DNA of 61,906 bases, counting the filler, from Sphacelaria rigidula (taxonomy: Eukaryota): NCBI GenBank assembly GCA_964200075.2. It is 9 parts of 9 records of this genome, joined end to end, with 100 filler letters (N's around TTAATTAATTAA, not from the genome) between each part and the next. Parts side by side here need not be neighbours in the genome. Positions count along the whole stretch, not along the records: positions 6,892 to 13,682 come from CAXNAA020018067.1; 8 more parts are not named here. One strand, 5' to 3'. A program made the translations under genes and the position numbers. This document shows, in pieces, positions 2,666-58,653 of this stretch (position 1 is its first letter; every line of letters starts with the position of its first letter). The notes below the pieces were generated by a model that was not told where the DNA came from, did not search any database, and saw only the letters and a program-made list of their open reading frames with translations.

Positions 2666-5600
2666 CTTGACTCATGAAACGTTAACCCAGGTGCAGAGGT
2701 TGGCCGGCGGTGGAGAAGGGGAAAGGGACGGGCGGGGGGGGGGGTTGATACGTTGATATATTCACTCTCAGACGCCGTTCCGGCGCCTGACATAAGAATC
2801 AGATTGAGTTTGGGGTTCCAAGGGTAACAGAGTTCGGTTCGTCAAGTGCGGTGGGATTTCAGACGTAGCAAGTTTGAACGCACGAGTGCCAGCCTGATTT
2901 TTGCACCTAAATACCGTCAAGCCTTAGGTTTGAATCGTTGTAAGTCCGAACCCACCTTCACATGTTTTTCCGAGGAGAAGAAAAGATCGTTCAGAGTGGT
3001 CCTGACCCTATCACGACGGGTATGCGTAAAACTGCTGCCGGTCGCGGAGGTGTCCTGTGGTTCTCGTGAGTGTGTGTGTTGGAGCGTACTCATTTGTTGC
3101 TTGCCTTAGTTGTTTGACCATTGACCACGCATCCCTTTCGAGGCGGACCATTGTGTGTATGTGTTCGGGGGGGGGGAGGGGGAGGGTGTCCTCTGTTTGT
3201 TTCAGAGCGTCATTTTTTGTTCCGTCTCCAATTTATTTTCGTGAAGGAGTTTTTTTTCATCAGGTTTGGGAAGCATCGCACAGCGCACATGCACTCTTAT
3301 GTCCTCGTCCGATCAACATGATGGCGTTTGGCATAGCACAGAGCGCCGAGCGTTTCGGAAACCGCACTCCCTCGAAGACATACATTTTGGGACACAGGAT
3401 GGGCAAGACAAAGGGACAAAGGCTGGGTGAAGGGGCCAAACCTGTCAGTGAGAGGCAAGAACTTTCCCCGAAACGCTGACTTGATGGGTATAGCAGTGGG
3501 GGAGAGAAAATAGCCATCGGTTGGCCCAAGTGTTTGAAAACGTACGCCTTCATTTGAATTCGTACAATCGTATAGGGCAAACAGCTCATGCCTGGCGCCT
3601 ACAGACGTGCAAGTCAACTTCCCGGTTATCGTCCTATTGGCAGCGAATTGGCGCACAATGCTTCACCTGTGCAGTCATTTCTACCGGCAGCTTGTGAGGG
3701 TAGGTTAATACATCACTTGGCATAAATGTACCAAACTAATGGTTTTTACTGTCGGTGCCTCTGTGCTGTACTTGACTCGGGGGCTCGTGCCCTCTGACCT
3801 AGATGGGTTTTGGAGAACCACAAACTTTCGCGCCAACTACTCTCACGTCGTGATCAAACAACTGAAAACAAAACATCTCGTAATTCCGCACTAGTCTGAA
3901 CGCATATACAATGATGCTGATAAAAATGGTGTTCATCTCCACTCGATACTCCAACAAGATGCAGTACTGTGGTTGTTCGGCGCTATTTATTGCACCATGA
4001 CATATGACCATGGCTGAATTCCTAGCAGATCAGCTAGTGTGTGGCAATCATTCAATCAATCAACCAATGATCGATGCTGTAATATGAGAAAGATATACGT
4101 GAAAAAACATTTCTTTGCTTCATAGATGTACTTTACTTTTCCATGGTTAACTTTGAGAACCTTCATGGTATCCACCGATTCCAAGACTTGAAATACCATC
4201 ATTACCCTCCATCCCGACCAATTTCCAGGGGATATTTCAGCCGACCCAAACGAATAGCTCCGACGAAAATTGCTGTTAGCACACGCGATTTGTCTGCAAT
4301 GATAATGGTATTAATACATTCTCGATGAGATATTGAAATAAAAATATTAAAAAAAGCACACATACGCACTACGCTATCCTGCACCTACTGTATACTATTT
4401 ACGCCACTGCACACTGCACTGCGCTATATACGCTACTGCGCACTGCACTGTGTGTGTTGTGTGTGTGCTGTTGTCCCATCTATTCTGCACTGCACTTTAC
4501 TTTCCGTGAAATCATGCTATACATTATCTGAAGCATATGAGCGTACATGCTGCACTTTATACTATAATTAAGGAAGGTATGCTATACTGTGCCCCGACAT
4601 AGAAAGATCGCACACTATGCATGTGCCTATACCACAACTGCTTGCTGATCCCGATAGACCGCATCATTCATCCGATGCTAATGTCGAAACAACAGTTTTT
4701 CATGAGTACATTTGGACACGGAACTCTTCGCCACAAGCTGCTGGCAACAAGGACTGCATACCGCTGTCTAGTTCAAGACGTAAATACACGGCCGATAGGA
4801 TGACGGCGATACTCGGACGTTAACTCGCAATACTTCACGAGACAATCGTGAACTTTCTCGGGTATAATCTTGTCTAACTCGGAAATATGCCGCGGAAGCC
4901 CCCTCCTCCCCCCTCGGGAGGGGGAAGAAACTATCGCGAAGAAATAGCCATTGAGCGCATCGAGATGATGGATTGTTTTTCAGAGACAAGGGCTTGGAAG
5001 TTATCATGAAGAGCGCAAGTAGCTGGTTCCTGAAATCAGGTTTCTTGGGGATTATTTTAAATAGTGCAATCAAAGGCTGGTTTCAGGAACCAGGTATTCG
5101 AATTTGCGTCGAAGAATGCAAATACCGTTACCCTCAGAAACCAGATCTAAACCCCTCACATACATGCGAACTGTGACGGTTTTCTACTGACAAGTCAGCG
5201 CTGACTGGTCAGTAGTCTAGTTGGTTGTCTCTTAAACCGTCACAGAACCCTGCCTCGGTCCCCATTCCACTTTTCCGGGCAGGGGCTATCGCAGCATTAT
5301 TGCTTGATACACACAGACCCATCGATCTCACATACCCGAATGGAAGGCCTCCATGGACGCAGGTTTCCATGACTGCTTGCTCTGCGTACAGTAGTGACCC
5401 TTCTCTACATAAAATGAATTAGATGCTACCGACTGCGTCATATGGACTGAAGAGTTGGCAATCTCGAACCAGTCTTGCGGAACAAACTGTGCTCAATCGC
5501 ACAAGTTTGCTTCAGTGGGTAGGGGAGGGCCCAACAATGTCGAATGGTGCAACTGCAGTGTTGTAGATTGGAATGAAGCCGGTTCGATTTCCCGTTGTTG

Positions 5601-5961
5601 GATGCGTTTGAGATATTTTTGTCCTGAAAAGAAGTATACGCTTTTCGTCGTTAAAAATGCGAGGACGAGAGCAGTAAACCTGATTATTTCACGAGTGTCT
5701 AAGCGGTGCGGGAGGGGTGCTGATTCCATCCGCAACCCCAAAATGTATCGCGTGTGCTTGGGGTAAACTCGCGATCTTGCATGCCATAGTCATATGAACA
5801 CTGACCTCGCAGGCGTGTGCCGGGGCAGAGATGAGTTGATTCCTGGAGACCACGGGCCCGTCTCAAAGAAGGGGAAGGGTTTGAAGTGTGACGAATATAT
5901 ATATATACATACACACACCTATTGCGCTCAAGGTGTTCTGGCGCGGTCCTCAACAGCTCAC

Positions 5962-6791: not shown

Positions 6792-6891
6792 NNNNNNNNN
6801 NNNNNNNNNNNNNNNNNNNNNNNNNNNNNNNNNNNTTAATTAATTAANNNNNNNNNNNNNNNNNNNNNNNNNNNNNNNNNNNNNNNNNNNN
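6792..6891. other. Artificial contig-joining spacer (N44-TTAATTAATTAA-N44); identical spacers at 13683-13782, 20573-20672, 27462-27561, 34351-34450, 41240-41339, 48129-48228, 55018-55117
   Basis: Eight identical 100-nt spacers carry a six-frame stop linker. The intervening segments are 6791, 6791, 6790 and then 6789 nt long, as expected for size-sorted contigs. Confidence 0.99.
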
Positions 6892-8320
6892 AGGGATGCG
6901 AGGTCAACGGTCTGATGACTGTGGCATGCATGATCATGAGTACCCCCATGCGAGGTCAATGGTTTGATGACTATGGCGTGCATGATCATGAGTACACCCC
7001 CCCCCTCCCCCCTCCCCCTCCCGGTACAGTATACAGTACATGCCTTACGCTTTGGCATGTATCGCGGATTGGACCAGCACTCCAGCACCCTTTCGTCGAT
7101 GTTGGGGTTGACGTGACCCTCGATACATTTTGTTTTTTTGAAGATATCCTCTTCTTTTTTTCCGCAGTCAAGTCACGACACGTGAGTGACTATTCTCGTT
7201 TTTTTGCTGGTGCTCCAGGGCGCGCGATCATTAAATTGGGTCTCGTACAGTGTAACTTCTTTTTCAACCGAGCAATTTTTTCTCCATTCGTTATATGAGC
7301 TGGGCCGGCTATCAGTAATATTTGAACGAAGAGTGGAGATGCGATTGGCAATTCGAAGATCAGGCGCTGTAATTTTGATTCGACATATTTATCATAATCA
7401 ATCCGCGCAATCCTGTGAGTGGAGTAAAGGAAACAAAACAAAAACAGGAAGTTAGAGCGAGTTGAAGGTACAGCGCAGTTTCAAGTAGTACTTCTCGGTG
7501 ATATACAGCAGTTGGCTCGGAGGTTCTCTCCCATAATGGAGCTTATGACGAGCTTGATGCCATATTCCAGCACTACCAGTGTGCTCTTACCTGGGCATGT
7601 CGGGTGTGCGTGTGCCTATGCGGCGCAACGCTCTATCGTAATCCCACCGCGTATTGTGAAACGAAACCTCTCCAGCCATGTTGTCACGCGACGGCAAGAG
7701 ATGTACCCGGTAGTCAATGCAGTACAATAACATCATCGCCAAAACTGCGCCAATCAAGCAGCGGCGGTGCCGTGTGTTACCAGGTTAGTCTGCAATTCAC
7801 AGCGATATGCTCAAGTCGCGCTGATTGGGTAAACTTGAGAAGTTGTAGTGCGGAGAGAGAATGTGGGATTTACTGCCGGTCCAGATCGTGGGAAATAGGA
7901 AATGCAACGCTCCGGGATACATGAAGAGTCAATTGCATATTCTATTTTCCGTACAAAGTGGAAGAGATTCGCTTCGTTAGGAACCGTCCTCATGCATTCA
8001 TTTACCCGAAGGAGAGGATGATGGGTTTGAAAGCAACCTGCACGTTGCACGTATTTATCACTTTATGCCTGTCTTGAATGTCGATTTTACGTAGAATCGT
8101 CTCGCTCGCCTCGCCTCGCCTCGCCTCGCCTTCGCGTGCTCTCATTTTTTTCCTTCTTGTATTTCGTTTCGTTTTTACTTGCTTTTCCTCTTCATATATA
8201 TATATATATATTTTTTTTTTCTTCGTTTTTCGATCTTTGTTTTCCTTTTATCTTCCCCCCCCCCCCCCTTTTTTTCTCATTTCTGTTCTCTCTTTTTTTT
8301 CTCTTGTTCTTGTTACACAG

Positions 8321-8467
8321 TTGGTACACCAGGACCCGAACAAGGCTCATCTCACGGCGGAGGTGGTGATGCCCGTGATGCCCGACGTTGCTCTGTGGCC
8401 CAATACGTACACAACGGTCATGTTCGACAAGGACCCCGCAGCCGACGAAACGGTCAAGGGATCAGAG
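8321..8467 (+). CDS. PAF1: RNA polymerase II-associated factor 1 (Paf1 complex subunit), internal exon
   Basis: LVHQDPNKAHLTAEVVMPVMPDVALWPNTYTTVMFDKDPA matches the Paf1 motif H..K....VEVMPVFPD...W.N....V.FD.DPA. Polypyrimidine tract plus CAG acceptor, GTGCGT donor, 147 nt, phase 0-0. Confidence 0.85.
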
Positions 8468-9900
8468 GTGCGTTACTTTGTTCAACGGGGTCCCCGAGTT
8501 TATTTTTCCCACGCTATTATTGGTCCGGCTTGTTTACATTGATCGGGTGCGTCCATTTTTTACCACGGCTGGATCCCCGGAGGGTCAGTCAATCGAAGAG
8601 GGTAGGGAACGAGGGGGGGGGCAGGGAGGGGGGAGGGTGTACTCATGATCATGCATGCCGTTGTCATAAGGCCATTGATCGCGCATCCTTTTCGAGGCGG
8701 AGCAATTTAGAGGGGGGGGTGGGAGGGAGGGGGGGTATTCATGATCCTGCGTGCCATAGTCATCTGAGCATTGACCTCCCATCCCTACAAAGCTGGGACG
8801 GAGCACGCCGGGCTTTCGCGGGACCAGGCTCGCAATTAATAACCAAGCGCGATTCGTGGTGATGTGTTGGGCGTGTTGCATGAAGGGTCATTATCGGTCC
8901 GAAGCATACTGATGATGTGGTACTGGGCGCATGAACTATTTTTTGTTCAGAAGTTTCTTTGTTCTCGTGACTACTCTTCGATAGAACTCGAAAGTGCTAG
9001 CGTGATTTTGGTCAAATAAACAGATTGTTTCCCCCGCCAGTGCCCAAGTGAGTGTTGGTTGATTGTATCGAGCGATACGAGTGGATACCCCGTTTACCAG
9101 GAGGGTGTTATTGACAGTAAAACACAGTTTTTCGGCTTTAGTGCAATGGGTAGGTGAAATAAAAATAAAAACTGTCTGCTTCTTCACAAATATGATTAGG
9201 ACAGGCTCGATCGACCGAAAATACTGATAAGTCAGAACGTGGGCTGAGACGTGTCAGGACCCCCGATGACAGGCCAGCCCGTAAGTCACTCACTCTATTG
9301 AGTATAGTTTTTTTTCTTCTTGGAATGTGGAGCGGATACAAGTGTCTTGAGATCCCCAATGTGATGAGCGGTGGCAAGCGAAAGAGCCTAAGGAAATCGC
9401 AAATTACGAAGAAATTACGACATGAAGAGTTCAGGCGCCCAGTACTGTATTACACTTGAATGTCAGTCTCCAATGAGTTACTTCTGGAAGGGAGCGGGGG
9501 GAGTAGGCGTACTCATTCGTTGCTTGCCGTAGTCGTTTGAGCATTGAATTCGCACCCCTTTCGAGATGGCTAAGAGAGCGGAGTGGGGAGGGGGGTCGAC
9601 GGTCAGCCCTAAGGTCCTCGTGCGGGGCACCAAATGGGTACAAAAAGCAACATCCATTCCTATCGCTGGACGGCTTTTTTGCAACTATCTGCGCAGAAGT
9701 TTAACCTTCTACAATGGGCATGAATTGAACATGTCGAGAACGATATATTTTGTACTGATGAATGTATCTGAAAATATGTTGTTTTTTCTGCATATTTTTA
9801 CTCTTTTTTGCCGGTGCTCACTACGCATGGATCAACAATGGCAGCATCATGCTACGACCTGGTTACGGCCGGAGTGGACGCTTTTTATTATTTTTTTCCC

Positions 9901-11241: not shown

Positions 11242-11965
11242 GTGAACAAATAGGAACAAATCATGTGGAGTATGGCATACATGGAGCATAGCAGGCATGG
11301 AAAATAACGCACGCACGCATGCACGCACGCATGCACGCAAACATACATCGATTTGATTGTCTCACAGTCGCTGATTCGCTCATGTACGAATCCAGACTTT
11401 GTCGCGAAAGATTTGTATCCAATATGTCACGCAGGTATATTGAGTGTGGCGTACAGAAAATAGATGTAATCATTTCACAATTTAATTTTCTTGAAATTGA
11501 TGATTGGAAAATCGTACACCTGCAATATAATTAATTAATTCATTAACTGATTGGTTTTTGAGATTGGTTAGATGATTGGATGGTCGATTGAATTTTATTT
11601 TGGACGAGGGAAAGACGATACAACTAATTAATTATTATATATATTAATTAATTAGTTAATCAATTGGTTGTATGAGCGGAATTTAATGGTTGGAGTTTAT
11701 TGATTTTTTTTTTTGGACAAGGGAAATACAATATTTCCAGCGTGTTCGTTGGTCAAGCTACGCATGAGAATGCCAAGGTGGCGCGTTAGGAATATCCTGT
11801 TGGCCGTATTTGTCCACGTTGTCCATCTCTTAGCGGTAACAATGGTCCGCATAACCTACTCCGTATATTTTTCATGTTTGTGTGTTCGTGTGTTTGTTTG
11901 TTGTTTGTTTCAGGTCGAATTTTGTTTTGTTTCGTTTCTTCTTGAATCCCCTCTGCCCATACCGC

Positions 11966-13255
11966 CCGCAGAAACAAATAGAGACGGCGCTAGAATACAC
12001 TAGGAAATGGAGAGTGACAGCGAACGTCAACAAATGCGCGGTACTCGTATGTAATGAAGATAGAAAAAAGCCGGCCGAATTTCAAATGGAAGTGGCGAGA
12101 AGAGAGACTACCGACCGTGGGCCAATAAACATACCTTTGCGTAGAGATCTAAAATAACTGTTCTTGGGATGCACGCATAAATAAGGCAATAGAACAGGGC
12201 AAGGCACAGATAGGCAGGGTGGACGGGATACTCAGAGACTCGCACCCAGACACTGGGATTAAGAGATGTATCCTGATGAACGTGATCGTACCAAAGCTGG
12301 AATATGCAGGAGAAGTATGGGGGGGTAACAGGAAGCCGATGGAGAACTTTGAAACAGTACAGATGACAGCAGCGACGAAAATACTTCGGTGCTTGAAAAC
12401 GACGAGTGATACAGCTTCGAGAGCAGAGTTGGGAATGTATTCACTTGAAACAAACAGAGACATGAGATAATTGAGATGGCCGTATATCGTCAAGAACATG
12501 CAGAGGAAGAGATTGCCAGCCATAGTTGATAGGGCTATATGGAAGAAAATTACGAAAGCGCAGGCTGGAATAAGGTGGGATAGAGAAGTCGAGAAAGTGT
12601 GAAGGGATATAGGAGGAAATAGGCGACGGCGCGGGGTACAAGACAAAAGTAAGGGACATGATAGAAATAAGGGGAAAAAGAGCGCTTAGACGCAAAGTAG
12701 AGGAGGAAGAACACCTGAAGATATACGGGGGGTTGAGAGAAAGGGGATAGGAATGAGAGCATATCTGCATGGCCCACTGGACGCGGCGAACTATGATCTT
12801 CGGTGGGGGACCTGGACCTACCAGAAAGAAGAAATAGATATACGAATAGTCGAGAGGAGGAGGAAGTAGATGTACAGAATTGCCCCTGTGGCAAAGCAAT
12901 AGAGAGCAGAAGTCATATAGTGGCAGAATGCAAACTACACAAGGAGGAACGGGACGTGCTAGAGGGGGAAATGCGGGACATGAACGAAGGTGGCATTAAA
13001 TCGTTTAATGCATTAGACAGTATGGGGAGGAAACGATGCTTATACTAGGAGATTGATGATGGTCACAGACGGCGGAACAGGACGGGGATAAGATATGTAA
13101 AGATTCTTGTGTAGTGTATGGAAGAAGCGTGATGAGCACCGGAATGTTGGAGGTATCTCCATTGCGGGTAGGTAGGAACGGTGCTGCGTCTCGAAAGAAA
13201 TGCGTGGTCAATGGTCACACGACTAAGGCAAGCAACGAATGAGTACGCCCCCCCC
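11966..13255 (+). mobile_element. 5'-truncated decayed non-LTR retrotransposon (LINE family A), 3' end of the RT ORF and 3' UTR
   Basis: Frameshifted fragments KWRVTANVNKCAVL (late RT), IVPKLEYAGEVW, RAELG, GDLDLPERR and CPCGKAIESRSHIVAEC (CCHC knuckle). Ends ...AATGAGTACGCCCCCCCC. Confidence 0.9.
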
Positions 13256-13829
13256 GTCGCCGCCCTGCATTGTTTGTGACGACCATTTGCTTGCTTTCGC
13301 GAGCTACAGTTAGTACACGGTGGCGTTCGAGCGATTTCTTCAACTCTGAAAAAAAATGACAACCGGAAAAGATACGACGACCAGACTGTAACAATTCCAC
13401 CGCATTTTTTCGCCTTCTTTTTTCTCTAGCAAACATGACCTTTCACGTCAAGGACATGTATACGTGTTCCCCCCCGTCCCAGGAAAAAGGTATCGCGTGA
13501 ACCACCATTGCGTAGAGCAGCCAAGTGCCCGTTCAGGAGACGACATGGGTTAGAGGGTCCCAGGGGTGGGTCGAGCACGGTGTGTTCAAATAACCTCTGT
13601 GTGCGTTGTCGTCCCATTTATTCTGGGCACCAGGCTACACCTTTCGGTGTATGTGGGTGCATCAGCCGAAGTAAAACAGGAGNNNNNNNNNNNNNNNNNN
13701 NNNNNNNNNNNNNNNNNNNNNNNNNNTTAATTAATTAANNNNNNNNNNNNNNNNNNNNNNNNNNNNNNNNNNNNNNNNNNNNGTGTGTGGGGGGGGGACG
13801 AGGGGGGGGCGGAGGGGCAGCAAACGTGT

Positions 13830-21432: not shown

Positions 21433-22766
21433 TTATTCCCCACTCAATGAAGGATGAGACAGCGCCAACTCCAGCTTGACATTCCCTTCTCCTTTACCAA
21501 CCACCATTTTCGTCTCGACCCCCGAGTGTCTCGATACTGTCGGTGAAACTATACGATGCCGCTTGGGGCCTCGCTGACTGGTGGAACAGCAATCAGCACT
21601 GCGGCAGTCGCTCGAGGATGGAACAGACCACCCACTGGTCCTTTCCCCACTGCGCACGGGAGTGTGACGAGAGACAACCAGCTCTAGCTTCATGTCCGCC
21701 TCCTTCTTGGAAGTATCATCGTTCCCCGCGGCCGGTTTCCCTGAGGCTCCTGGAAGCACCGAGGCGGCGGGGCTGCAGTTTTCACGTACTACACGACGAG
21801 GACCAACGGCACTAGTTGCATCGAAACCAACGCCGGTACATTCTTCAAGGCTTGATTCTCGTCCGTGGATAGCGTTCGTAACTCCACTCTCGCCTGAGTC
21901 ATGAGTTGAGAGGGGCGCTTTATGGCCGAACGTGGACGTAGTGGGCATAGCAGCCATGTCGACAGCATGCTCGCGGCAGAAAGTCGTCTTGCTTTCACCC
22001 TCCAGATCGCGCATGATGTACTTGGAGCAGCCCTCCTGGCCGCACCTCTTGCTCTCGACATCCATTATGGCCCTGCCAGCATGTTGAGCACCGAATTTCC
22101 CCCGCCTGCTGCCTACCGTACCGTTTGATGGCTTTGAGAAGCCCTCCTGGCCGCGCCTTTTCTTCACGACATTCACCATGCCCGCGACAGCATGTTGAGC
22201 GCAGAAATCAGCCCGCCTGCTGCCTTTCGCACCGTATGACGGCTTGTTGAAGCAGCCCTCCTGGCCGCACCTCTTGTTTACGACATCCACCATGCCTGCG
22301 CCAGCATGTTGAGCGCAGTACTCCGCCCGCTGCTGCCTATCGCACCGAATGACGGCCATTTTGAGCAGCCCTCCTAGCCACACCTCCTGTTCACTACATT
22401 CACCATGCCCGCGCCAACATGTTGAGCGCAGAATTCCGCCTGCCTGCTGCCATTCGCACCGTAGGACGCTAATTTCGAGCAGCTCTCCTGGCCGCATCTC
22501 CTGCTTATGACGTCTACCATGCCCGCGCCAGCATGTTGAGCACATAATTCAGCCCACCTGCTACCTACCGTACCGTATGACGGCTTTTTGGAGCAGCCGT
22601 CCTGGCCGCACGTCCTGCTCGTGACGATTAGCATGCCCGTGCTGTCTACCGTAACGTCTGGCGGTCGCTTCGAGCAACCTTCCATGCCTAACGTCTCACT
22701 CAAGACACCCAACATGCCCGCGCTAGCATGTTGAGGACAAATATTCCCACTCGGACAACCAGCCAC
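21433..22766 (-). pseudogene. EsV-1-7-type cysteine-rich repeat gene, disrupted
   Basis: About six 38-aa (114-nt) repeats, consensus RCGQEGCSKxPSYGxxGSRRAEFCAQHAxAGMVDVxx, followed by a low-complexity C-terminus. There is an in-frame TAG at 22374-22376 where other units have CAG, and a 1-nt deletion near 22330 (unit spacing 113 instead of 114). Confidence 0.85.
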
Positions 22767-23849
22767 ACCACAGGAGGGCTCTATTGAGCACTTTACGGCG
22801 GAGCACTCGAGAGGTATCCCCTATACAGGGCAAGGAAGGAGTCGAAGTTCACACACGTCTTGTTGGCCGCAGAAATCCGCTCCGTCAGATCCGCTCCATG
22901 ATCAGGAGCTTACCAACTGTAGTTCAGAAGTTTGTTCCAAGCAAGGAGAGAAAGTCGGTCATTTAGCAGGGCGATACATACGGTGTGAGCTTTTGCTCAC
23001 TTGTTCGGTGCAATCAAGAGAGGGGAGCACATTTACATGTCCTCAGGTCGTCGACAGAAGCACCATCAGTACGGTTGGTCACAGTGAGCATCACCGCAGG
23101 TGCTAGAAAGTTCGGAAGCAGGCCGCATCTTGAGCTCAAGAACGGCTTTCCCGCCCACCGCCGGCAACAAATGGACCATACGTAAGAGTAGTCAATTTGA
23201 AACGTTGAAGAAAAGGTCAGAGAGTTCGAAGAGGACAGATTTCCTACCGGTTACCCTGCTGCTCGAGAAAGGGGTGAAACAGGGTTCAAACCGTGGAAAC
23301 TGCAGGTATCTACGCGGGAGCAATGCAACGATAGGGGTTGCACTTTTTGTTTGTGGGTCTCGTTTTAGTAGGAGCCCAGCTATATGGGGTTCACTTGGCA
23401 ACCCAAATCTCCGTGGACAGGACATGGAGATGCACACAGAGGCCTCTTTGTGAATCGGCATCATTTTAAGTCTTTTTTATTCCCAGAATGATCCGTGCAA
23501 CACCCCGAGTAACATTTTCGCTCAAAAAATGCAACCTTACCGTAGCATCACTCCGGGGTGAATTTCAATGGACTTGCAAGATATCGCAAAAATGTGATCG
23601 TCAGAATTGAGTGTTGGGTTAGTCTTATCAACAGGGTGGGTCGATTCCGGTTTTACCTGTTTATGAGGGTTGTCTTACCTTCATGTTTTCCCGAAAAAAG
23701 CGAGTGAGAGAGGGAACATAACGCATACGCGATGTGTCTACAGTTGCGTGTGAGGATGTATAGGGTCCCCGGTTCACCATGGGAAGATGACGCGAGGAGA
23801 CTTTCGTGCCGCCGTTCAGTACAAATCTGCTCTCGTGCAGTGTAGAGCC

Positions 23850-26646: not shown

Positions 26647-27263
26647 TATAAATAGGGGGGAAAGGAGCGCTCAGTCGCAAAGTAGAAGAGGAAGAACACC
26701 TGGAGATATACGGGTGGTTGAGAGAAGGGATCGGAACGAAAGCATGTTTGCATGGCCGCATAGACGCTGCGAAAAATATGAAATTGAGATTCCGGGTGGG
26801 GGACCTGCACCTGCCAGAAAGAAGGGAGATGTATACCAGTCGTCGAAAGGAGGAGGAAATAGATGCACAGAACTATTTATGTGGCAAAGGAAAAGAGAGC
26901 AGAAATCATATAGTGGCAGAATGTGAACTATACAAGGAGGAACGGGACATGCTAGAGGGGGAAATGCGGGACGTGAATGAAGGTGGCATGAAATCGTTTG
27001 ATGGATTAGACAGTAGGGAGAAAACGATGGCTGTACTAGAAGATAGATGGTGGCCAAAGACGGCGAAACAGGACGGGGATAAGATATAAAAAAAATTATG
27101 TCATGTATGGAAGAAACGTAGTGAGCTAAGGAAGAAACGTGATGATCGCCGTAATGTTGGAGGTGTCTCTATTAGAAGTAGGAACGGCGCTCCGTCTCGA
27201 AAGGGATGCGTGGTCAATGGTCACACGACCAAGGCAAGCAAAAAATGAGTATGCCCCCCCCCC
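26647..27263 (+). mobile_element. LINE family A, 5'-truncated copy
   Basis: High identity to 12660-13255 (KLRFRVGDLHLPERR, ESRNHIVAEC). Ends AATGAGTATGCCCCCCCCCC. Confidence 0.9.
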
Positions 27264-27561
27264 AAACCAGCCAAAGGCAGTGTAAAAGACGTGGCTGTCT
27301 CTAGAAGTGGCGATATCAGAAAAAAAAAAAAATCATTGTAAGCTGTCATCCAAATGCAAGATGATCAGTGGGCTTCAGACCGAACAATCTTAGCAGGATG
27401 CAGCTCACTCTTCATGCGACTCGCCGAACACACCATGGCGCTTCGCGCTTGGTGATTGAGTNNNNNNNNNNNNNNNNNNNNNNNNNNNNNNNNNNNNNNN
27501 NNNNNTTAATTAATTAANNNNNNNNNNNNNNNNNNNNNNNNNNNNNNNNNNNNNNNNNNNN

Positions 27562-35960: not shown

Positions 35961-37364
35961 GTTTGGAATTGCGTGTGTCGACCACACGCTGTACCTTTTT
36001 GTCGTTGTATCGAGTACGACTGTATCATGTACCCTTTTTCGAATCAACCACACAAACCGAAAGAGTGCATGAGTCGTACAGTAGGATATTTTCCCGTATA
36101 ATACTTGCCCTCTGTAGTAAGAAGCTTTGTGGTGCATGGCCCATGGGACACGTGTTGGCCTTGACCCGCTTGATTTCGGGGCGGACGGTTTTTTACCCTG
36201 AACACGATTAACTAAATATAAAGTGGGTTTGATGATTGATTGTCGCACATGAAGTCACCCGCTACGAATCATGATCTAGACGTCGTCTCGAGAACGTGAA
36301 ATATACGGAACACCCTGGTGCTGTTCCTTTGCAATGGCCGCCGCGCTCTGGTGGTGTAATGGTCCGACTGTCGCCATTAGGGTGGATAGAACGGGGGTTC
36401 GATTCCCGATGCGTTGGGTTTTTTGTTCGTTATGCATGATCTCCACCNNNNNNNNNNGTTGACGCGGTGCGGGAGTGCTGATCCAATCCGCGAGACCAAA
36501 ATGAAAGGCGCGTGCCGGGGCAGAGATGGGTTGGTCCCTTGAGACCACGGATTCATCCCGAGGAATGGGAAGGGTTCCAAGTGTGAGGGAAGGAAAAAAA
36601 ACAACTAAGGAAGCTCAAGAAGGGCAAATGTGAAATATAAAGGAGAGCGCGATTATAGGCAAGGGAGAAGGCCAAATGTATACATATACAAGGGGTTCGG
36701 CGGCTTACGCCGCCACGGCTAGTGAGATGGACAGCCAAGATACATGAGAGCCGGTCATTGTTGCTCGCATTGCGTAACGGCACAGGTCATAGTTTTAAGT
36801 GGAGTACTTTCGGCTGTGTGCGTATGGTGACACATGTCTAGGGAGCAGGATATGAAAAAGAGTTTTACTGACGTTTGATAATCGCACCTACACGGGCACG
36901 TAAACGACAACCTCCACCGTCGAAGAACACACACGGAGACGCGCATTCGAGTTTTACACCCACAGCAACGAATAGGAAACATCGTCCACCGTCGACGAAC
37001 ACACACCCGGGGACACTCGTACCATTAACCAGATGTTATTGCGCCGCGGAGTAAAAAAGACGAAAATAGATGCTGCGACGGTGAACGAACAGTGCTGGGT
37101 TGTGCCTGTGACGAATATCCCCGTTTCCTCTCCTTATCTCCCTTAAAGCAAACATTTTTTTAATTTGGTCATTATCCAGATGAGGGATTTACTGTAGGTC
37201 TCTACGCGTGTCGCAACGCTTGCTCGAGAGTTGTTCGAAATTTCGTGGGTGGGTTAGTTGTTTTGTCTGTTTATCCATATCTATGCATGATGGAGACCAT
37301 GTGCCTTCCCCTTCCCTCCCTCCCTCCCTCCCTCCCGTTGTGTTTTTTGGTGGTTTGTGGCTAG

Positions 37365-38677: not shown

Positions 38678-38775
38678 ATATATTCTTGCTCTTGTCTTTT
38701 CTCGCCACCACTTGTCTTGTGGTTACTTCCGAACGAACGAACGGGCGAACGGGCGAACGAACGAACGAACGAACA
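38540..38775. repeat. Microsatellites (ATT/AGT)n and (GAAC)n in the MetAP1 intron
   Basis: Directly visible simple repeats; (GAAC)n abuts the splice acceptor. Confidence 0.95.
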
Positions 38776-38777
38776 AG

Positions 38778-38972
38778 ACACACGAAGCGACGATCGAAAG
38801 GAACGCGTATCCTTCGCCGCTGAACTACTACAACTTCCCCAAGAGCGTCTGTACGTCGGTGAATGAGAGCATCTGCCACGGGATCCCAGACATGAGAGAA
38901 CTTAAGGACGGGGACATTGTCAATGTCGACGTCACCGCCTACTTCGGGGGCTACCACGGCGACTTGAATGAG
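38778..38972 (+). CDS. METAP1: Methionine aminopeptidase type 1, exon ([38 protein letters not shown]...[10 protein letters not shown]...GYHGDLNE)
   Basis: Diagnostic YPSPLNY..FPKS.CTSVNE.ICHGIPD motif and metal-binding DVT/HGDLNE motifs; AAG acceptor, GTGCAG donor, 195 nt. Confidence 0.95.
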
Positions 38973-40032
38973 GTGCAGTGTTTCATACACCAGACGGCTC
39001 ATGAGCAATAGTGCAATTGTCAAACTTTCAAGCAAAGCATTTTCGACTCGAATGACGGTTTTTCCGGACTATAATACTTACTCATCACGGTTTTTGTTTG
39101 ATCCCAAACTCAAGGAATCGAGAAGCATGAGCACCCAAACAAGTTTTACCATAAAAAATGCAGTAATCCCTTACCAATTTTGAAACCGATACGGGCTCAC
39201 CGGGTTTTTGGGGCCCTCCGAGTTGTACAGCCGCCGGTTTTCGCTCTTTCAAAATTTCGTTCGACCGAATCGATCCGGATTGTTATTAAAAGTAGAAAGT
39301 ATTTGCCTTTCCGCTGTTCTTTTTCTTGGCATTCACTTCGCTAGGGGCGCAAAACCGTGTTTCTGGGCCTCATACGGTCAACAACACCCCCTGTATGAAG
39401 GGCTTATTACTCTGTATCGTTTCGACAACACGAAATTCCCACGATCTTTTGTCTTTTTTCTCGATTGGGAATGAATGCGTGTGCTGTTGCGCAAGGTCTT
39501 TCCCTCCTGAAGCAACGGTGTAGAAGCCGGCCATTTCTAGCTTTTTCAATTTGTTGTACGGTGTACTCTTTCTGTCTTCTTCACTTTTCTTCAGAAAAGG
39601 TTTCCGTTTAGTTTTGTTCTCATCTCGGGGACGTCTTATGTATGATGACGACTGGATCCCTAGGGGATCCTTTGACGTGCGACAATCAATCAATGAATCA
39701 AACCAGTCAATATACTGGTCATTCTCCAAACTTGGTCACAAGATGAACATATGAACGTATTACATTGTACGTCGTCAAAGTACTGTATGCGCGGGGACAA
39801 TGGGTGAAGGAAATGCTGTTTGATTGGCTGCTTGGTTGCTTGGTTGTCGCACATTATGTGACCCAGTACGAGTCATGATCCAGGCATGGTCACAAAATAG
39901 ACGTACCTACCCGAGATGATGAATGAGAGGAAACGAGAGGAAGCAGAAATGTGATTCTGAAAGAAAAAAGAAGGAAGAAGGAAATAAATGAGAGTAAATT
40001 GAAGAGAAAGGGAGAAGAGGAAAGAGAAGGAC

Positions 40033-40410
40033 GGGAGGGGGGGGGAGGGGGGGGGGTTACTCATTCGTTGCTTGCCTTGGTCGTGAACACCCTGGACAAA
40101 ATATTTCAGTGTCAAGAAATCTACTGCGCACAGTGTGGAATCCTTTGTCTATTGCAATAGACCCAACAGTAGATACTCTATGCCGCAGACTTTTTGACAA
40201 TGGAATCTACTGTCATTGTCCAGGGTGTGTAGTCTTTTGACCATTGACCACGCATCCCTTTCGAGACGGAGCACCGTTTCTACTCCTAATAGAGATACCT
40301 CCAACATTCCGGTGCTCATTACGTTTTTTCCGTACATTACTCGAAAACTTTTTACATATCTTATCCCCGTCCTGTTCCGCCGTCTGCGGCCACGATCTAT
40401 CTCCTAGTAA
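40033..40410 (-). mobile_element. LINE family A 3' fragment interrupted by a MITE; shorter A tails at 3081-3146(-), 9496-9569(-), 41147-41230(-), 60031-60110(-)
   Basis: Reverse complement of 27045-27263, flanked by G tracts on both sides. Confidence 0.85.
40086..40229. mobile_element. ~145-bp MITE with (TTC)CACACCCTGGACAA inverted termini; copies at 49077-49226, 53621-53760 and 61831-61906 (cut by the window end)
   Basis: ACACCCTGGACAA ... TTGTCCAGGGTGT termini; four dispersed copies with related interiors. Confidence 0.75.
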
Positions 40411-41419
40411 AGCCGCGGGGGGGGGAAGGGAGAAAAAAGCAAACAGTAAGAAAAACGAACAAGAAAAAAAACGAAAGAAAGAGGGAAGGGAAGGAAGAGA
40501 GAGATCATGAGAAAAATCCAAGGCTAAGAAATGTAGTGCTTGCCCGGGAAAAAAGAACGGTGAGCTTCTACCGCATGGCTTTAGGTGAGGAGACTGTACA
40601 CAAACCAAAACAAGACAAGGAAAGAAAAAAAAGTTGCGGATTAGCTATCTCTATCTATTTGTGTTGCAAGCAGGTTTTCATCCGACGTTCCAACCGCATG
40701 GTTCTTTATCCCTTCCGGGAATAAACCACCAGTAGCGCAGGGGCCTCACCGCGCCCCGGTGGTGTGAAGTAAAAACGATCTAACTGCCATCATTAAGGTG
40801 CAGAGAGCGTGGGTTCGATTCCTCCGATGCGTTCGGTTCTTTCTTCGAAGTATCTGATTTCCACCGTCGAAAGCGTGAGTGAGTACGTACCTGAGTAAAC
40901 AAAAAGTAGTTGACTGAGTTCGTTTGACAAGAGGTGACGCGGTGCGGAAGTGTTGGTCATGATCCAATCCGCGAGGGCAAAAATGCAAGGCGTGCACCGG
41001 GGAGGGATAGATGGGTTGATCCTTCTGAGACCAGTAGACCACGGACTCGTCCCGAAGGAGAAGAGTTCAAAATGTGACGAGAGAAAAAGAAGGATGTTTT
41101 TTTCATCTCAAGTACGCCCATCACTATGACCGCGGCTAGATCCCTTGGGGGGAGGGGGGGGGGGCGTACTCATTTGTTGCTTGTCTTAGTGGTTGAACCA
41201 AGAACCACGCAGTCCTTTCGACACGGAGCATATGGAACANNNNNNNNNNNNNNNNNNNNNNNNNNNNNNNNNNNNNNNNNNNNTTAATTAATTAANNNNN
41301 NNNNNNNNNNNNNNNNNNNNNNNNNNNNNNNNNNNNNNNTCCCCCCCGCGGGCGCGGGCGGGGGGGGGGGGGGGTGGGGGGGGGGGGGGGGGGGGGGGTG
41401 GGGGGGGGGGGGGTTCTGT

Positions 41420-46300: not shown

Positions 46301-49300
46301 ATGAGGACCATATTAACCTGTTATCGTGCCGCCTCTGACTCGTTGGCTGGTCCAGCTAGAGTGCATGGCATTTCAAGTTATTTCAAGACTGCAAGTCTGT
46401 TCAGAGTTGGTCAGATACGAATATGAACTCGTATAGAGCGAGGGATGATCGTCGATGGGTTTGCCCTTCGTGATCATATCGCTTCATCTCGACAAGGCAA
46501 CCCTCACATCTGCGGTGAGGCTGATTGATTGAGCGAGAGAGATCGAGCACTGAGAAGTACCCGGGAGATCGAGGAATTTAGCTACCAAGAAGTGATACTG
46601 TCATATCTACCCGTGAAAATGATTTGATAACTCGGATACAGAACATCAGCGTCGTACGCTTCAGAAATGTTGTTTGCCTCTCAGCTGGTGTTTCAGGCCA
46701 TCTTATTTGGCCCTCCTGCCGTGCTGGTGAGGCGTGTATACCATACACCCAGCGTACCCCCCCTACACTGGCGGTTGACGAAGGACTCTCTTCTCCTGAT
46801 TTTGTGTTTCTCCTTTGAAATAGGTTGTTCTCTCTGTCGCATCTTGTGCGTGAGGTCCCACTCGACAAATCTGCAGTTTGTGCGATTTCGGGCCTTGTTA
46901 TTGTTGCGTAGTCCATTTTACCCTGCTCGGTAGTCCGTGGTGCACAGTTGGCGTGATCGGAGCGCTCCTCCGTGCTCCGGCAGATGATCGGAGTGAAATA
47001 TTCGACGCACATGAGGGTGTGCGTCGTTGCATGCCAAAATAATTAGCCCCTTTCTGCGTATATACCAGGGAAGACCATGTTCGTAAATATCAATGTGCGT
47101 TAATATTGTGATGGGGCGGTGCTCTTGCTCACATTCGTCCCCCATACATGAGTTGCAGCATTCGTGTAAGTCTTCGTCGAAGGTGAGTTGTATTTTTTGA
47201 GAGACCGCAGCACCTGGCGGCGGGCGTTGGGTACATCAGGGCCAGCAATCGTGACTTGTGGCACACTCCGACGTACAATTTCATTCTCTAATCCTTCGAG
47301 GAGCTTCCATATTACAATGAAAGACGAGGATCCAATGGGGGAGCCGCAAGCACCGGCGAGCTCGCGAAACATGGACAGGCTGGGCCAGCTGGCAGTGGTT
47401 TGCGAATGTAGCCGGGCCGGGCGGTGGGAAATCCGAAGCGTTAGGCGCTGAAATCTCAGCACAACATTTCGACCATCACTACGCACAACGCTCCCGGGGG
47501 CGCCAAGGAAACAAAATTACAGCAGAAAGTTAGAGGGATTTGAAGCTTCTGCATAAACTGTATGAATGTTGTCTGTGACGCTAGCAGGTTTGCTAGTACT
47601 GCAGCGTCTAAATGCTGTTGAGGGCCTCCCCAGCTCCACTGGCCTCAAGGTTCTCAGTTGCCAGCCTTCACAACACCTTATCATTATCTCGGAGTGAAAC
47701 CTGTAGCATACCATCAGGCCTGGGCTACACAGCAAGGGTCTTCATCCACAGGATGCCCTTGTCCCCTGATCATCATCCAGGATCAACTATTTACTGAACC
47801 GTGACGGCGTGATTTCGCCACCGCACCCCCAAAGCGCGTTGAATGAGAAATCGATCAACAAGCTTGACACTCAGAGAACGAACGCCAAAACGATTGAGCA
47901 AGTCACAACTGAATCCCAAACTCACGCGTAATGCAAGCAGCAATGGAATGAGTCACTCGCACCTCACGCAAGTCCTTCTTGAGAAATTCCGAAGCTGCCT
48001 CAAAAATATGTTTCAAAGGCTCCCGCATACGCTCCTCGACCTCAAAACCAACCCAGTCGACCAATACGATCAACGAACGATCCTCTGCCTCTGCCACGCG
48101 AATAATCCCAGCCATCTGAAATACCCCCNNNNNNNNNNNNNNNNNNNNNNNNNNNNNNNNNNNNNNNNNNNNTTAATTAATTAANNNNNNNNNNNNNNNN
48201 NNNNNNNNNNNNNNNNNNNNNNNNNNNNATGAAAAGAGCAATCGATTGGACCCGCCACCTGTGCTTTTTACATGCATACTGCCTGAAAAAAATGAGAAGA
48301 GGTGCGTAGGTTTGGTCATTTTTCCCAGACAAAAACGAAAACGCATTTTTTTTTTGGGGAGAAAAAAGGCCAAATTTAGTCTTGATTAATGTGTTCCTCC
48401 GTAAATAGTTGCAATACAAGAAATGGTACTGCGTTACGTATAGGCCTATTGCAACCGTTGACCATATTTTGCGCATCATGTGATGAATATATATATATAT
48501 ATATATACAGATGTATGCGTGTGTGATTGTTACAAAACATTACTCTCTCGCCCCATTTTGGCTAGTTGACCCGCAGAGTGGAGATGCGGGCCGTTTGTTC
48601 TTCCGAAGGTGGCTATGCGCGTGTTATTCCGAACTCGAAAGACACCACGTATGCTGCCACGGAAGACTGGGTACGACGGGTGCTTTGTCGCTACTCCAGT
48701 CTTTGCTGTGTCTGGGGTCGTGGATGCGGTGCATGTGAGCACGCACAGCAAGTTGATGTTGTAGTTTTAGACAAGGAGTAGGTCTCTCGTTGGGAATCAG
48801 GCAGCTAGCGAGCTATTGACCATGGAGAATGACCTATCGAGGGTATTGTCGAGGGGGACCGGGAGTGAGGAGCGTCACAAACCATGAACGTGCTCTCTGC
48901 ACGATGATAACGGTTTGACAAACCCTCCGATTTGGATTTTTTGTTGGATCTTTCGCCGCATGCAGGCAGAGCATTCGTACAGTACGTACATTTCATGAAG
49001 AGTCGAGTTATTTGTTTTTACGGGTCGGCCCCGATGGGCTCAAGATTGCTGCACTTCGTAGTAAGGAAGAAGAATGTTCCACACCCTCAATATTAGCATT
49101 ACATTGGCAAAAAGTGTACTGTATATATCGAATATATATATCGTGTGTTGCAGTACATAATAGATTCGATACTGTACGCAGTACAATTTTTGATCAAGGT
49201 AATACGTTTTGTCCGGGATGGGGAATATTGTCCGTGGTGAAGCACGCTTTGTGCGCGCGAGTAAATGACTGCCCGCGTAGAGTAGCGTAGTGTTCGGCCA

Positions 49301-49875: not shown

Positions 49876-50594
49876 GTGAGTTGGTTCACATCGCATCAAT
49901 TTACCTGCAGTTTTTTCCCCAATGTCAAGTATGATTCCGCGCCGTAAATGACGGCGGACAAGACCGGTACGTACTTCACCACCCCCCGTGGATGACATCC
50001 CTGGGGGATGACGTTCCTTGTATTTCTTGTTTCCATGCTGGGTTCTGTTGTGCTGTATAGGGCGAGGTGGTACGTCACACCTTCCGCCTTTCCCCCAACT
50101 AGTACCGGGCGGTCGTATACAAGGTTACCCACGTCACTCACATATTTTGAAAATTTTGGAAAGGTGCGCGACGGGTCCGTCAGAAAACAAGAAATGGTTG
50201 CTCTTCTCTTGCTTTTCTGTTTTTTTTTTTTCTTTCTTCTCGTGGGTAGCGTGTTACTGGGAAGTACAGCACATGTTTCTGTTTGTGTGTGCGTGCGTGT
50301 ACCAAGCTTCCAGTCCGAGTGAATTTTTTTCAAGTTCCTCCGACTACGATCCCCCCCGAAGATAATTAGCACGCTTCGGATCGAACAATCTTAGCGGGAT
50401 GCAGCTCACCCTCATGCGACTCGCCGAACACACCACGGCGCTTCGCGCTTGGTGATCACGAGCCTGTTCCGGCGAAAACTTGGCGTGCTCCGTCCCGGTT
50501 TTGTGATGGATACAAGGTCGATGGTCTTGTGTCTACGGCATCAAAGATAATGAATGCACTCCCTCCCCGTAGAAAATGGAGTAACTCATTCAAG

Positions 50595-50810
50595 GCTGTC
50601 ATCACTGTGCAAGATAATCAGTACTCTTTAGGGCGAACAATCTTAGCAGGATGCAGCTCACCCCTCATGCGACTCGTCGAACCCTTCGCGCTTGGTGACC
50701 GGTTGCGAACCTGGTCCGGCGACAACTCGGCGTGCTTTGTCCTGGCTTTGTAGAGATGCGAAGTCAATGGTCTTATGACTACGGCATGCGATGTCATGAG
50801 TACCCCCCCG
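50595..50810 (+). mobile_element. Retroelement family B 3' end; other copies at 874-995(-), 5764-5811(-), 6892-6947(+), 6948-7022(+), 8638-8702(-, A/B chimera), 8735-8857(-), 27343-27461(+), 50378-50568(+), 58075-58116(-)
   Basis: Dispersed copies are variably 5'-truncated and share the 3' terminus GGTCAATGGTCTxATGACTAxGGCATGCATGATCATGAGTAC(A)CCCC. Confidence 0.8.
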
Positions 50811-52395: not shown

Positions 52396-53969
52396 GTTAG
52401 AATGATGGCGCAGAACGTATCCACCTGTAGTTGTATTTGGGGGGTTGTTTCTACGAATGCGTAAACTATTATACGCTTTGGGCCGTCCCATGGGGTCCCG
52501 AAAAATGAAGTCAAACCTCTGTTCCAGAAAGTTTGGGGCTGGGTTTTCAGATATTTTTCTGAAACCGTCTTCGATGGGGTTTTGTTCTCGGAGATATGTT
52601 ATTCGAGATCGGGAGTGTTTCGTTCCCAGAGATATGCTTTTCCCGTCCATCTCGTCAACAAAAGTAGGCTTTTTTCGGAGAGATTAAGTTTTGTCGGCGA
52701 AAGGTTTTATCAAAAACGCCTCCCATCGAGCGCGCTGCAACAAGATGTGCAGACAGTACACAGATGAGAGCCACCGCACCCCGGTCGTGTAATGGTCATG
52801 ATCCAGCTAACACTATCAGGCAGAAGAGAAGGCGGGTTCGATGCCCGCGATATGCGATTTTTTTTTTTAGAAGAATCTGATTTCTGCAGTTGGAATTGTG
52901 AGGCTGTGAGCAGCCGAGAAGAGTTTGAGTTTGCTCGGCGGGAGTTCACGCGGTGCGGGGGTCATGATCCAATTTGCGAGACCAAAATGTAAGGTGTGTA
53001 CCGGGGGAGAGATGGGATAATTCCTTGAGACCATCGACTCGTCCCCAGGAAGGGGAAGGGTTGGAAGTGTGACGGGGAAGTAAGGAAGGGGAAAATGGAG
53101 CACAGCCCGCACGTAGCACGGTACAGATCGAGCACGCGGCAAACTGTACGATGAGGCAACAGAAACATGTATAGCACCAGTACCGCTGTGCATGAGGACA
53201 GACGGTACAAGCGTGCATGCACGAATGGCAGCAGCATACTATACGGCACATTCAAAAGTGCGCGAAGACAGACCATTGTGCTAATACACACTTCGTACAA
53301 GCACGAGTTACGGTAGGGCAGTACAAACAACACCCGTCAAGGATGCGGGTCAGGGCACCCCTGTGCGATAACGCCGGACTGTGCGTTCGCTCCGATACCT
53401 TTTGCTTCTTTCGCGCACCCCTGTGCGTTTGCTCCGCACTTTGCCCTGACCCCGAACCGTGCCTATAATCGCATCCTTACGGTACATAACTGTAGATAAT
53501 GAGCAGTACGGTGGCCGCTGCTTCGTTCTCAAATTGATGATGGCAGATATCATGCGGACGGGTGCTCCCACTCTTCGTCTAAGGCTCGCCAACGGTTCTC
53601 GAGTCATCTTGTGAAATAAGCACACCCTGGACAATGGATTACATAGTCAGAAAATGTACTGGGTACAGTACATAATCTATTGTCTGTTGCAAAAACGCAA
53701 TCGTCAATACTGTACGCAGTACACTTTATGCCAAGACAATCTATTGTGCAGTGTGTGGAAATAAGAGTATTCGCGAGGTCTCTCTTCTCTCTCTCTCTCT
53801 CCCTTACGAGATGAGAGGGGAAATAATATATATGATTTCTTCAAAGGGGTCCGGCCTCCAATGGTGAGACATAGCAATCGCGCGTAGCACCTGTACGGGG
53901 CACAAAAAAACCACGAAAGGGGAGGCAGGCGGGCGGGCAAGAAGACACGCGAGGCGAATGTAAATAAAT

Positions 53970-57600: not shown

Positions 57601-58653
57601 CCTGGTGGTATGACTACTGCATCCTGCGCAGCGGCGGCAACTTCAGCCCGAAAAAGTGTTCGAGAAAATGCCGGCCGCCCACATCAAGACGCACGATGCG
57701 CCGGCGTCGTTTGACATCCAACCTATCCTACGACTTTCTATGGGGAAAAACCCGACAGAAAATCGCGCCCTTTACCCCTCCAGCGCAGCCACTACGGGCA
57801 CATCTGCACATATCGCACGGAGATGTCAAGCGCATAATGTCACCGACAACCAATCCTGCCATGAGACCACATTACATCCTGCGTTGTACATGATCTCCAT
57901 CCATCCGCGATACAACCCCTGGCGGCCTCGCAGTCTGGGTTCGCCGCTGTTGGTGCACCTGAGGCGAAATATAGCGCACGCGGTGATAAATATGTGCAGA
58001 GAGGATCAGCGAGCCAGAGTCATGTTTCTTTCGACCCCGGGGAGGGAGGAAGAGAGGAGGGGAGGGGCGGGGGGTGTACTCATGATCATGCATGCGATAG
58101 TCATAAGACCAACCATGGAGGGGAGGGGCGGGGGGGGGGGGCTATCTCACGATCGCACCGCAAAGGGGGGGGCGGGGCCGGGCCGCATGACTGATCGGCG
58201 TAANNNNNNNNNNGTTCTCTCTCTTTATACTGCGCGCATCGTGCGGCACTGTCGTTAGCGGCCTATCTCACGATCGCACCGCAAATGGGACGGCGTCGCC
58301 GCGCAGCATGACTGATCGGCATAAGTCTGATGCAGCATGTGCGCGAAAGTCCCACGAGGTCTGGTTTCCCGTAGCCCACTCATCGACAGCCAGATTCCAA
58401 TACCATACACGACAGCCACACCGCGCTCCCCTCATCACACAAAATCACGGATTGCAACATCAAAATTATTGCAACCCCACCGCAGCCCCTTCCATCCAAC
58501 TTTATATCATACGGAAAAAGAATTACCCGGGATTGCGGTCGATACACGGACCTGGGGATCATAATAAACGAGGGGGGATAGAGGCGCGTGACTACTGACG
58601 CGAACCTGCTTCGCCGAAGCTCTTGGTATCATACCTGTGCGTTGACCACTCTC

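Follow-up and report, generated by a model that had tools for sequence, protein, structure and literature searches.

A conserved 3′-terminal module shared by a LINE and its dependents

A module of roughly 70 nucleotides, followed by a run of C residues, recurs in the genome of Sphacelaria rigidula, and we consider it most probable that module and C run together form the 3′-terminal cis element of a very abundant brown-algal LINE, whose RTE-X-like nature is read from a (C)n end, targets rich in C and partners standing in tandem rather than from a tree, and that the same element is also borne by a short non-coding partner (family B) and by units that consist of the tail alone. Judged from its sequence, the module would be the approximately 70 nt that the LINE needs at the end of its RNA, where we infer that its reverse transcriptase (RT) uses them. 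The DNA analysed here, a stretch of 61,906 nucleotides that we call the window, joins nine pieces of about 6,790 nt through linkers of the form N44-TTAATTAATTAA-N44 (at 6792–6891, at 13683–13782 and at six more places), and the copies of the motif therefore come from separate loci of one genome. Because they meet linkers, the tails at 6892 and 41231–41239 are cut by construction. Two gaps of 10 N (36448–36457 and 58204–58213) are separate from the linkers.

The initial annotation had described the motif in two families, A and B, as a fold of three stems, here called P1 (GTGCTC with the terminal GAGTAC), P2 (CGTCYC with GGGATG) and P3 (TGGTC with GACTA). The family A motif is present where it had been placed, at 13181–13246 (+), 27187–27252 (+) and 60042–60111 (−), and family B has the sequence that had been given for it, at 8731–8806 (−), 50732–50807 (+), 6892–6947 (+) and 6948–6999 (+). 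Allowing up to one mismatch, the 11-mer at the core of the motif occurs 10 times against 1.34 expected, a count reached in none of 100 shuffles. A covariance model built from ten A-type tails (R1) returned 21 matches at E ≤ 1 from the window and four metagenome loci together, and 16 at E < 0.01 from the window alone. These searches added copies at 3082–3151, 41162–41231, 9505–9573, 8635–8705 and 40230–40277 (with 40038–40085), as well as further copies at 874–949, 50485–50561, 58072–58116 and 5761–5831, all of them absent from the initial annotation.

Outside the window, a pattern scan of metagenomes gave 76 loci, 4 of which are LINE tails; the other 72 are not, and their sequence does not continue as a tail. 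These 72 loci, within L011–L086, have the exact 19-nt tail core in bacterial contigs, inside a gene encoding ...MGCVVNGPGE..., which we take to be ispG-like; the occurrence of the 19-nt core in this bacterial gene is a coincidence of the peptide GCVVNG. A scan of genome contigs found one more LINE tail in L087, which belongs to a genome deposited as that of an uncultured bacterium; the LINE 3′ end in this contig looks intact. Its tail is identical to that of locus L022, and that bacterial bin therefore contains algal DNA. Among viral contigs, two pattern scans gave chance matches only, and a scan by protein gave no match.

The reading frame of the LINE ends inside the module

Family A represents the 3′ terminus of a very abundant brown-algal LINE. 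Upstream of the tails at 13181 and 27187 are decayed frames of a type found behind LINE RTs, with a C-x-C...H....C motif. One of these frames, of 145 amino acids (26652–27086), has 6 longer and 94 near-length homologues. In the homologue P0003 (655 amino acids), an RVT_1 domain spans residues 36–285, upstream of the tail, and the shared tail directly follows the RT ORF of an autonomous element. The parts of the LINE seen are the RT and the C-terminal part (P0003), the 5′ half being absent from the window, and the named relatives of its protein are from Sphacelaria rigidula only.

In P0003 and many of its homologues, the frame continues through the motif and ends ...GGVSIRSRNGAPSRKGCVVNGQ(T/M)TKASNK. 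The family A frame through the motif reads ...NGAPSRKGCVVNGQ(T/M)TKASNK*, and its stop codon falls in the 3′ strand of P1. In the window, the C-terminal part of ORF2 with its CCHC motif (26652–27248, +) reads through the tail as ...NGAPSRKGCVVNGHTTKASKK*, with the TGA stop at 27246–27248, and at locus L022 a frame stays open for 133 codons up to the same ending. The peptide encoded by the tail is covered by 38 of the 100 homologues retrieved. As the LINE frames run through the motif, the module comprises the last 21 codons and the stop. This coding nature had been missed in the initial annotation: the TGA overlaps a strand of P1, and the supposed GAAA tetraloop is part of R-K codons. Constraints on protein and on RNA would therefore act on the same bases, because the module overlaps the end of the ORF.

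The LINE ends in a C run of about 8–11 bases or in C-rich short repeats. In the copy at 27187–27252 (+; R1 95.3 bits), the two strands of P1 lie at 27187–27192 and 27247–27252 and are followed by (C)10, shortly beyond which a family B element begins. The tail at 13181–13246 (+; R1 90.6 bits) is the 3′ end of a 5′-truncated LINE of about 1.3 kb, whose ORF fragments begin near 11855, and is followed by G and (C)8 at 13247–13255. Although the motif is present in this copy, first described at 13180–13255, the intact stems ascribed to it are not: it reads GTGCTG and GAAATG, and three stem-breaking changes in P1 and P2 leave no junction fold. In another LINE copy, truncated about 190 nt from the end, the 5′ part of the tail is at 40230–40277 (−) and the remainder at 40038–40085. 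An insertion of about 144 nt with terminal inverted repeats CACACCCTGGACAA...TTGTCCAGGGTG (40086–40229, −) splits this tail inside P3. BLAST found related stretches near 49098–49220 and 53621–53760, elsewhere in the window, for which reason the insertion looks like a member of a small MITE family.

Just upstream of P1, a stretch of about 45 nt (...GTTGGAGGTGTCTCTATTAGGAGTAGGAAC...) is well conserved between 27140–27186 and the loci L022, L030, L039 and L065, with an identity of 0.79–0.92 per 20-column bin. This stretch is absent from B and from the tail-only units, and would therefore not be needed for mobilisation in trans.

Family B is a non-coding partner of the LINE

Families A and B had been introduced as two different retroelement families. 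They are indeed distinct ahead of GTGCTC, where BLAST detected no similarity between them, but as lineages they are not independent: family A is a LINE, with B as its non-coding partner. By BLAST and alignments, the likeness between them is confined to the tail and begins at the first base of P1. Elements of family B are about 300 nt long (a 5′ end not fixed from two copies), are truncated variably at the 5′ end and often stand in tandem. ARAGORN found no tRNA genes in the window, and Rfam at E ≤ 10, applied to two stretches, gave chance-level rows only over the B heads. A strict SINE has a head derived from tRNA, 5S or 7SL RNA and a polymerase III promoter; since no tRNA or Rfam head was found, B fails this strict definition, although it behaves like a SINE.

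A 5′-truncated B copy at 8731–8886 (−; BLAST, alignment) has its tail at 8731–8806. Two copies form a tandem pair, the first at 50359–50561 (+; R1, BLAST) with its tail at 50485–50561, and the second at 50571–50810 (+; R1 39.7 bits) with its tail at 50732–50807, followed by (CCCCCGT)n. Another copy, whose 5′ end is not defined, spans 874–1127 (−; R1, BLAST) and has its tail at 874–949. At 6892–6999 (+), two B-type tails are in tandem, one cut by the linker (6892–6947) and one starting inside P2 (6948–6999). The B-type tail at 58072–58116 (−; R1) is truncated within the junction and flanked by a C-rich duplication, CGCCCCTCCCCTCC, and the one at 5761–5831 (−; R1 23.4 bits, E 0.0015) is degenerate. 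Finally, directly next to the (C)n of the LINE copy lies the 5′ part of a B element (27283–27461, +), which breaks off where the window piece ends. The same sequence (...CCTTACATTTTGG...TCGCGGATGGA..CAGCACC...) follows three B-type tails, at 760–873 (−), 7000–7115 (+) and 5650–5760 (−), which means either that B sits at one position of another repeat or that the two form a composite unit.

Tail-only units have a uniform 5′ boundary

A third class, previously unnoted, consists of tail-only units of about 72–75 nt, which occur both solo and in tandem and make up five of the eight A-type window copies with a visible 5′ end. The starts of four such units (60111, 3151, 41231 and 8705), at TGCTC or TGGTC, agree to within one base. 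The solo unit at 60042–60111 (−; R1 95.2 bits) starts TGCTC and carries an 8-bp target duplication, AACATATC, on its flanks. A second solo unit at 3082–3151 (−; R1 87.6 bits) starts TGGTC and has a C-rich tract about 20 nt upstream. The unit at 41162–41231 (−; R1 79 bits) starts TGCTC and has (C)n behind it, its upstream flank being cut by the end of the window piece. A decayed unit at 9505–9573 (−; R1 50.5 bits) lies behind a C-rich tract. The unit at 8635–8705 (−; R1 69.2 bits), which sits in the C-rich tail of an upstream B copy, is mixed, with an A-like GAAA loop and a B-like 3′ half.

We also matched Logan contigs from four runs, which may include the window's own sample, to 26850–27300 at 80% likeness, and obtained 27,773–54,779 matching contigs per run. 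Summed contig depth was 14–21 million in the tail versus about 5 million in the ORF part (X1), values that give no copy numbers, as contigs of high-copy repeats can provide neither these nor RNA ends. Loose ends before 27189 were found in 415–512 contigs per run, and their consensus is C-rich, (C)n+GT; units therefore begin GTGCTC directly behind C-rich DNA. Other contigs contain joints that go back 72 or 75 bases, and thus head-to-tail units. Along with the 3′ end at 27263, the 5′ boundary of the tail-only units is the best-supported boundary. In genome annotation, such units and their tandems are easily taken for satellites or overlooked. The LINE copy itself carries a local duplication of about 18 nt at 27100–27130 (+; GGAAGAAACGT... 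repeated), which accounts for contig breaks at 27087 and 27130.

The module as a candidate recognition site

The module had been proposed to be recognized by an RT and to be shaped like an acceptor stem followed by R-CC. Such a shape finds no support in ARAGORN or Rfam, but the anatomy and the precedents agree with the remainder of the proposal, in that autonomous and dependent elements have a common 3′ end. Because of this common end, the module is likely to be an RT recognition site, and we rate its role as a shared recognition end much higher than the three-way junction. As the LINE, B and the tail-only units carry the same module, all of them would present the same RNA end to the LINE protein.

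The anatomy, copy classes, coding overlap, target duplications, tandems and abundance were observed here, and RT binding, a fold and priming on the C tail are what we infer. The LINE protein would bind the module in cis on its own RNA and in trans on the RNAs of the partner and of the tail-only units. The bound module would probably adopt a fold in which P1 closes two hairpins and the conserved joints stay single-stranded. An endonuclease would nick beside C-rich DNA, and the G-rich nicked strand would then pair with the C tail of the RNA and prime reverse transcription. New copies would often insert in the C tails of older copies and so give rise to tandems; they would pile up behind old copies because the tails of these offer C-rich targets. 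Piled-up copies are found at 8635–8886, 6892–6999, 50359–50810 and 27187–27461. Marks of target-primed retroposition are a variable 5′ truncation, with copies of about 1300, at least 600, about 190 and about 72 nt, and the target duplications AACATATC and CGCCCCTCCCCTCC.

Several routes could produce the uniform start of the tail-only units. The template might have a fixed 5′ end, set by RNA processing or by a transcription start of its own; priming might take place on multimeric transcripts, with an upstream C run paired to the target; or the RT might jump between templates. That the enzyme simply halts on reaching the border of the fold is hard to reconcile with the B-type tails truncated inside the module (6948 and 58116). 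Partners and tail-only units represent a natural deletion series, in which the common part starts at the first base of one putative helix, and the module offers a small, well-bounded target for work on template choice by RTE-X-type enzymes.

Evidence for and against a three-way junction

On folding predictions and sequence comparison, we give a three-way junction about an even chance or slightly better. For the consensus-like tails L022 and L039, as well as the 60110 copy, the predicted minimum-energy and centroid folds (about −19 to −20 kcal/mol) are both the initially described three-stem structure, which is matched by one compensatory pair and by pair-preserving variants. Only two positions separate the copy at 6892 from the B consensus, and their combined effect is to replace the outer U-A pair of P3 by C-G (CGGTC/GACTG). 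At the fifth pair of P2, the main LINE lineage has U.G, B has C-G and L039 has U-A, which parsimony also assigns to nine proteins reading RKRC; pair variants shared by a lineage are not independent events. Among the 38 proteins, the recurrent stem changes P>L (5), G>R (9) and C>R (7) keep the pairing by parsimony, and pair-breaking changes are singletons. The A and B consensus sequences differ at 2 of 34 stem positions versus 12 of 36 unpaired positions (Fisher p 0.006), a test that is post hoc because the stems were defined on these same sequences. Relative to A, B has a P2 loop of 9 rather than 4 nt, through a 5-nt insertion, and a replaced P3 loop. Across six LINE ends, four of which had been chosen by an exact 19-nt match inside the tail, identity is 0.92 in the tail versus 0.80 upstream, and third codon positions are no freer than the others.

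Other results count against the fold. Folding z-scores relative to shuffles were −0.4 to −1.9 for intact tails and positive (to +0.7) for some copies, and none was significant. Given ten A-type tails, RNAalifold returned a covariation term of +0.94 and a structure that retains P1 and P3 but has a shorter P2 and extra UGC/GCA and GUC/GGC pairs; on the 21-row model-fitted alignment it predicted no pairs. Pair counts come from an alignment that was fitted to the model and its structure and that includes misaligned rows; no plain alignment of A with B is usable for them because MAFFT placed the B 5′ strands five columns off. The copies at 3082–3151 and 8635–8705 have a C.A mismatch in P2 in common, and the unpaired joint CGWGGTCAA is conserved as much as the stems, with one of its nine positions differing. 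The conservation of family A could in part be at the protein level.

Rfam 15 gave no match at the gathering score in the whole window, and at E ≤ 10 no row overlapped the tail in 27100–27461; by eye, the module contains no hammerhead or HDV-like core. The suggestion of an acceptor stem followed by R-CC receives no support from ARAGORN, run on the window, or from Rfam. The description of the motif as not yet catalogued holds for Rfam, whereas the sharing of tails between LINEs and partners in brown-algal RTE-X elements is already in print (PMC12477816).

Alternative explanations

The motif might be conserved simply as the C terminus of ORF2, with B and the tail-only units carrying a captured LINE end, primary sequence or the C tail being sufficient and the stems being coincidental. 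Such an account would fit a module that is coding in the LINE, whose folding energies are no better than those of shuffles, for which RNAalifold finds no covariation and in which an unpaired joint, differing at one of nine positions, is conserved like the stems. It is harder to reconcile with the non-coding B and tail-only units, which keep the stems while their loops change, including the 5-nt insertion in the P2 loop, or with the radical changes G>R, C>R and P>L, which recur exactly at sites where pairing is kept. The third codon positions of the tail are moreover conserved like the first and second, one P3 pair is compensatory, and the homology between A and B and the tail-only units both start at the first base of P1. 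We regard conservation of the protein end alone as unlikely.

A different possibility is that the module is a processed RNA domain whose precise 5′ end, at the first base of P1, would be made either by an RNase P-type activity acting on a tRNA-like three-way junction or by self-cleavage of an uncatalogued kind. The discrete boundary at P1 (415–512 contigs per run), the tandem joints, the four window copies that start within one base and the single purine plus C run after P1 would all be in keeping with this, but ARAGORN finds no tRNA, Rfam gives no ribozyme or tRNA match even at E ≤ 10 and no hammerhead or HDV-like core is visible by eye. The points at which B-type tails are truncated within the module vary, RNA ends are beyond what contigs of high-copy repeats can reveal, and a multimeric template primed at internal C runs could yield the same boundary. 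We think it quite improbable that processing sets this end, and assign a similarly low probability to a free mobile RNA of about 75 nt that undergoes reverse transcription by itself and forms head-to-tail joints through template jumping; if real, this unit would be the smallest retroposon class in this genome. The abundance and uniform boundary of the tail-only units could instead stem mainly from recombination that amplifies satellite-like tandem arrays, rather than from repeated retroposition. Joints going back 72 or 75 bases, and the C-rich sequence that precedes most unit starts, might be read in this way, yet solo units are dispersed over separate window pieces, each with its own flanks, and one has a clean 8-bp target duplication; we consider this explanation very unlikely indeed.

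Relation to known retroelements

The preferred reading, a 3′-terminal cis element common to a LINE and its dependents, is of a known kind, because it matches the RTE-X LINEs of Ectocarpus and their RTEX-N partners in the sections of PMC12477816 used here. According to these sections, Ectocarpus RTE-X LINEs have '(C)n 3′' ends and C-rich target duplications, and RTEX-N1, of 607 bp, 'can be present in tandem' and is 83% like RTEX-1/2 over its last 60 bp (PMC12477816). Compared by description only, RTEX-1_Ec32 and RTEX-2_Ec32 resemble the LINE studied here in their brown-algal host, their (C)n terminus and their target duplications rich in C, and RTEX-N1_Ec32 and RTEX-N2_Ec32 resemble its partner in being very abundant short elements, of unknown 5′ origin, whose likeness is confined to the last 60–100 bp and which can be in tandem (same sections of PMC12477816). 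The (C)n end, C-rich targets and tandem partners described there for RTE-X were found here as well. The partner is about 300 nt here versus 607 and 188 bp in Ectocarpus, and the tail-only element of about 75 nt seen here is not listed in supplementary part 1 of PMC12477816. The main text of that paper does not contain 'secondary structure' or 'hairpin', nor do the supplements examined contain 'stem-loop' (PMC12477816). A literature search found no paper on the structure of RTE-X tails. What adds interest to the present elements is that the module overlaps the end of the ORF, that it may form a three-way junction and that discrete units of the tail alone exist.

Tails of the UnaL2/UnaSINE1 type belong to the 3′ UTR, consist of one hairpin with an internal loop and have short repeats at the end. 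In contrast to UnaL2 and zebrafish L2, the module here shares bases with coding sequence, possibly forms a three-way junction, is followed by a C run and is known from its sequence alone. The likeness is that a LINE and its partner have a conserved 3′ tail in common, an established principle for stringent LINEs and their SINEs; for eel UnaL2 and UnaSINE1 and for zebrafish L2, the sections of the reports used here describe such a tail, common to LINE and SINE, and an RNA structure that mobilisation by the LINE's own protein requires (PMC1636434, PMC4176376). By analogy with R2, template jumping would give head-to-tail tail units. The R2 protein binds a structured 3′ RNA, and its RT can pass directly from one template's 5′ end to the 3′ end of another; R2 is site-specific in rDNA, and we know of no short R2 partners of the tail-only or B kind. 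The RT of the Mauriceville retroplasmid uses a tRNA-like 3′ end. The module resembles that end in having a closing helix, an unpaired base and C residues at the 3′ terminus, where cDNA would start, and differs from it in that ARAGORN finds no tRNA-like fold, the C run is variable rather than CCA and the enzyme would be a LINE RT with target priming.

Other features of the window

At 21436–22820 (−), two frames match the EsV-1-7 cysteine-rich repeat family (E 8.5e-28 and 1.1e-33), which is characteristic of brown algae and of the viruses that infect them; such repeats point to a brown alga. A frame at 8078–8539 (+) matches Paf1 (E 6.1e-07) and another at 38679–39008 (+) matches Peptidase_M24 (E 6.7e-14); both are probably exons of host genes.
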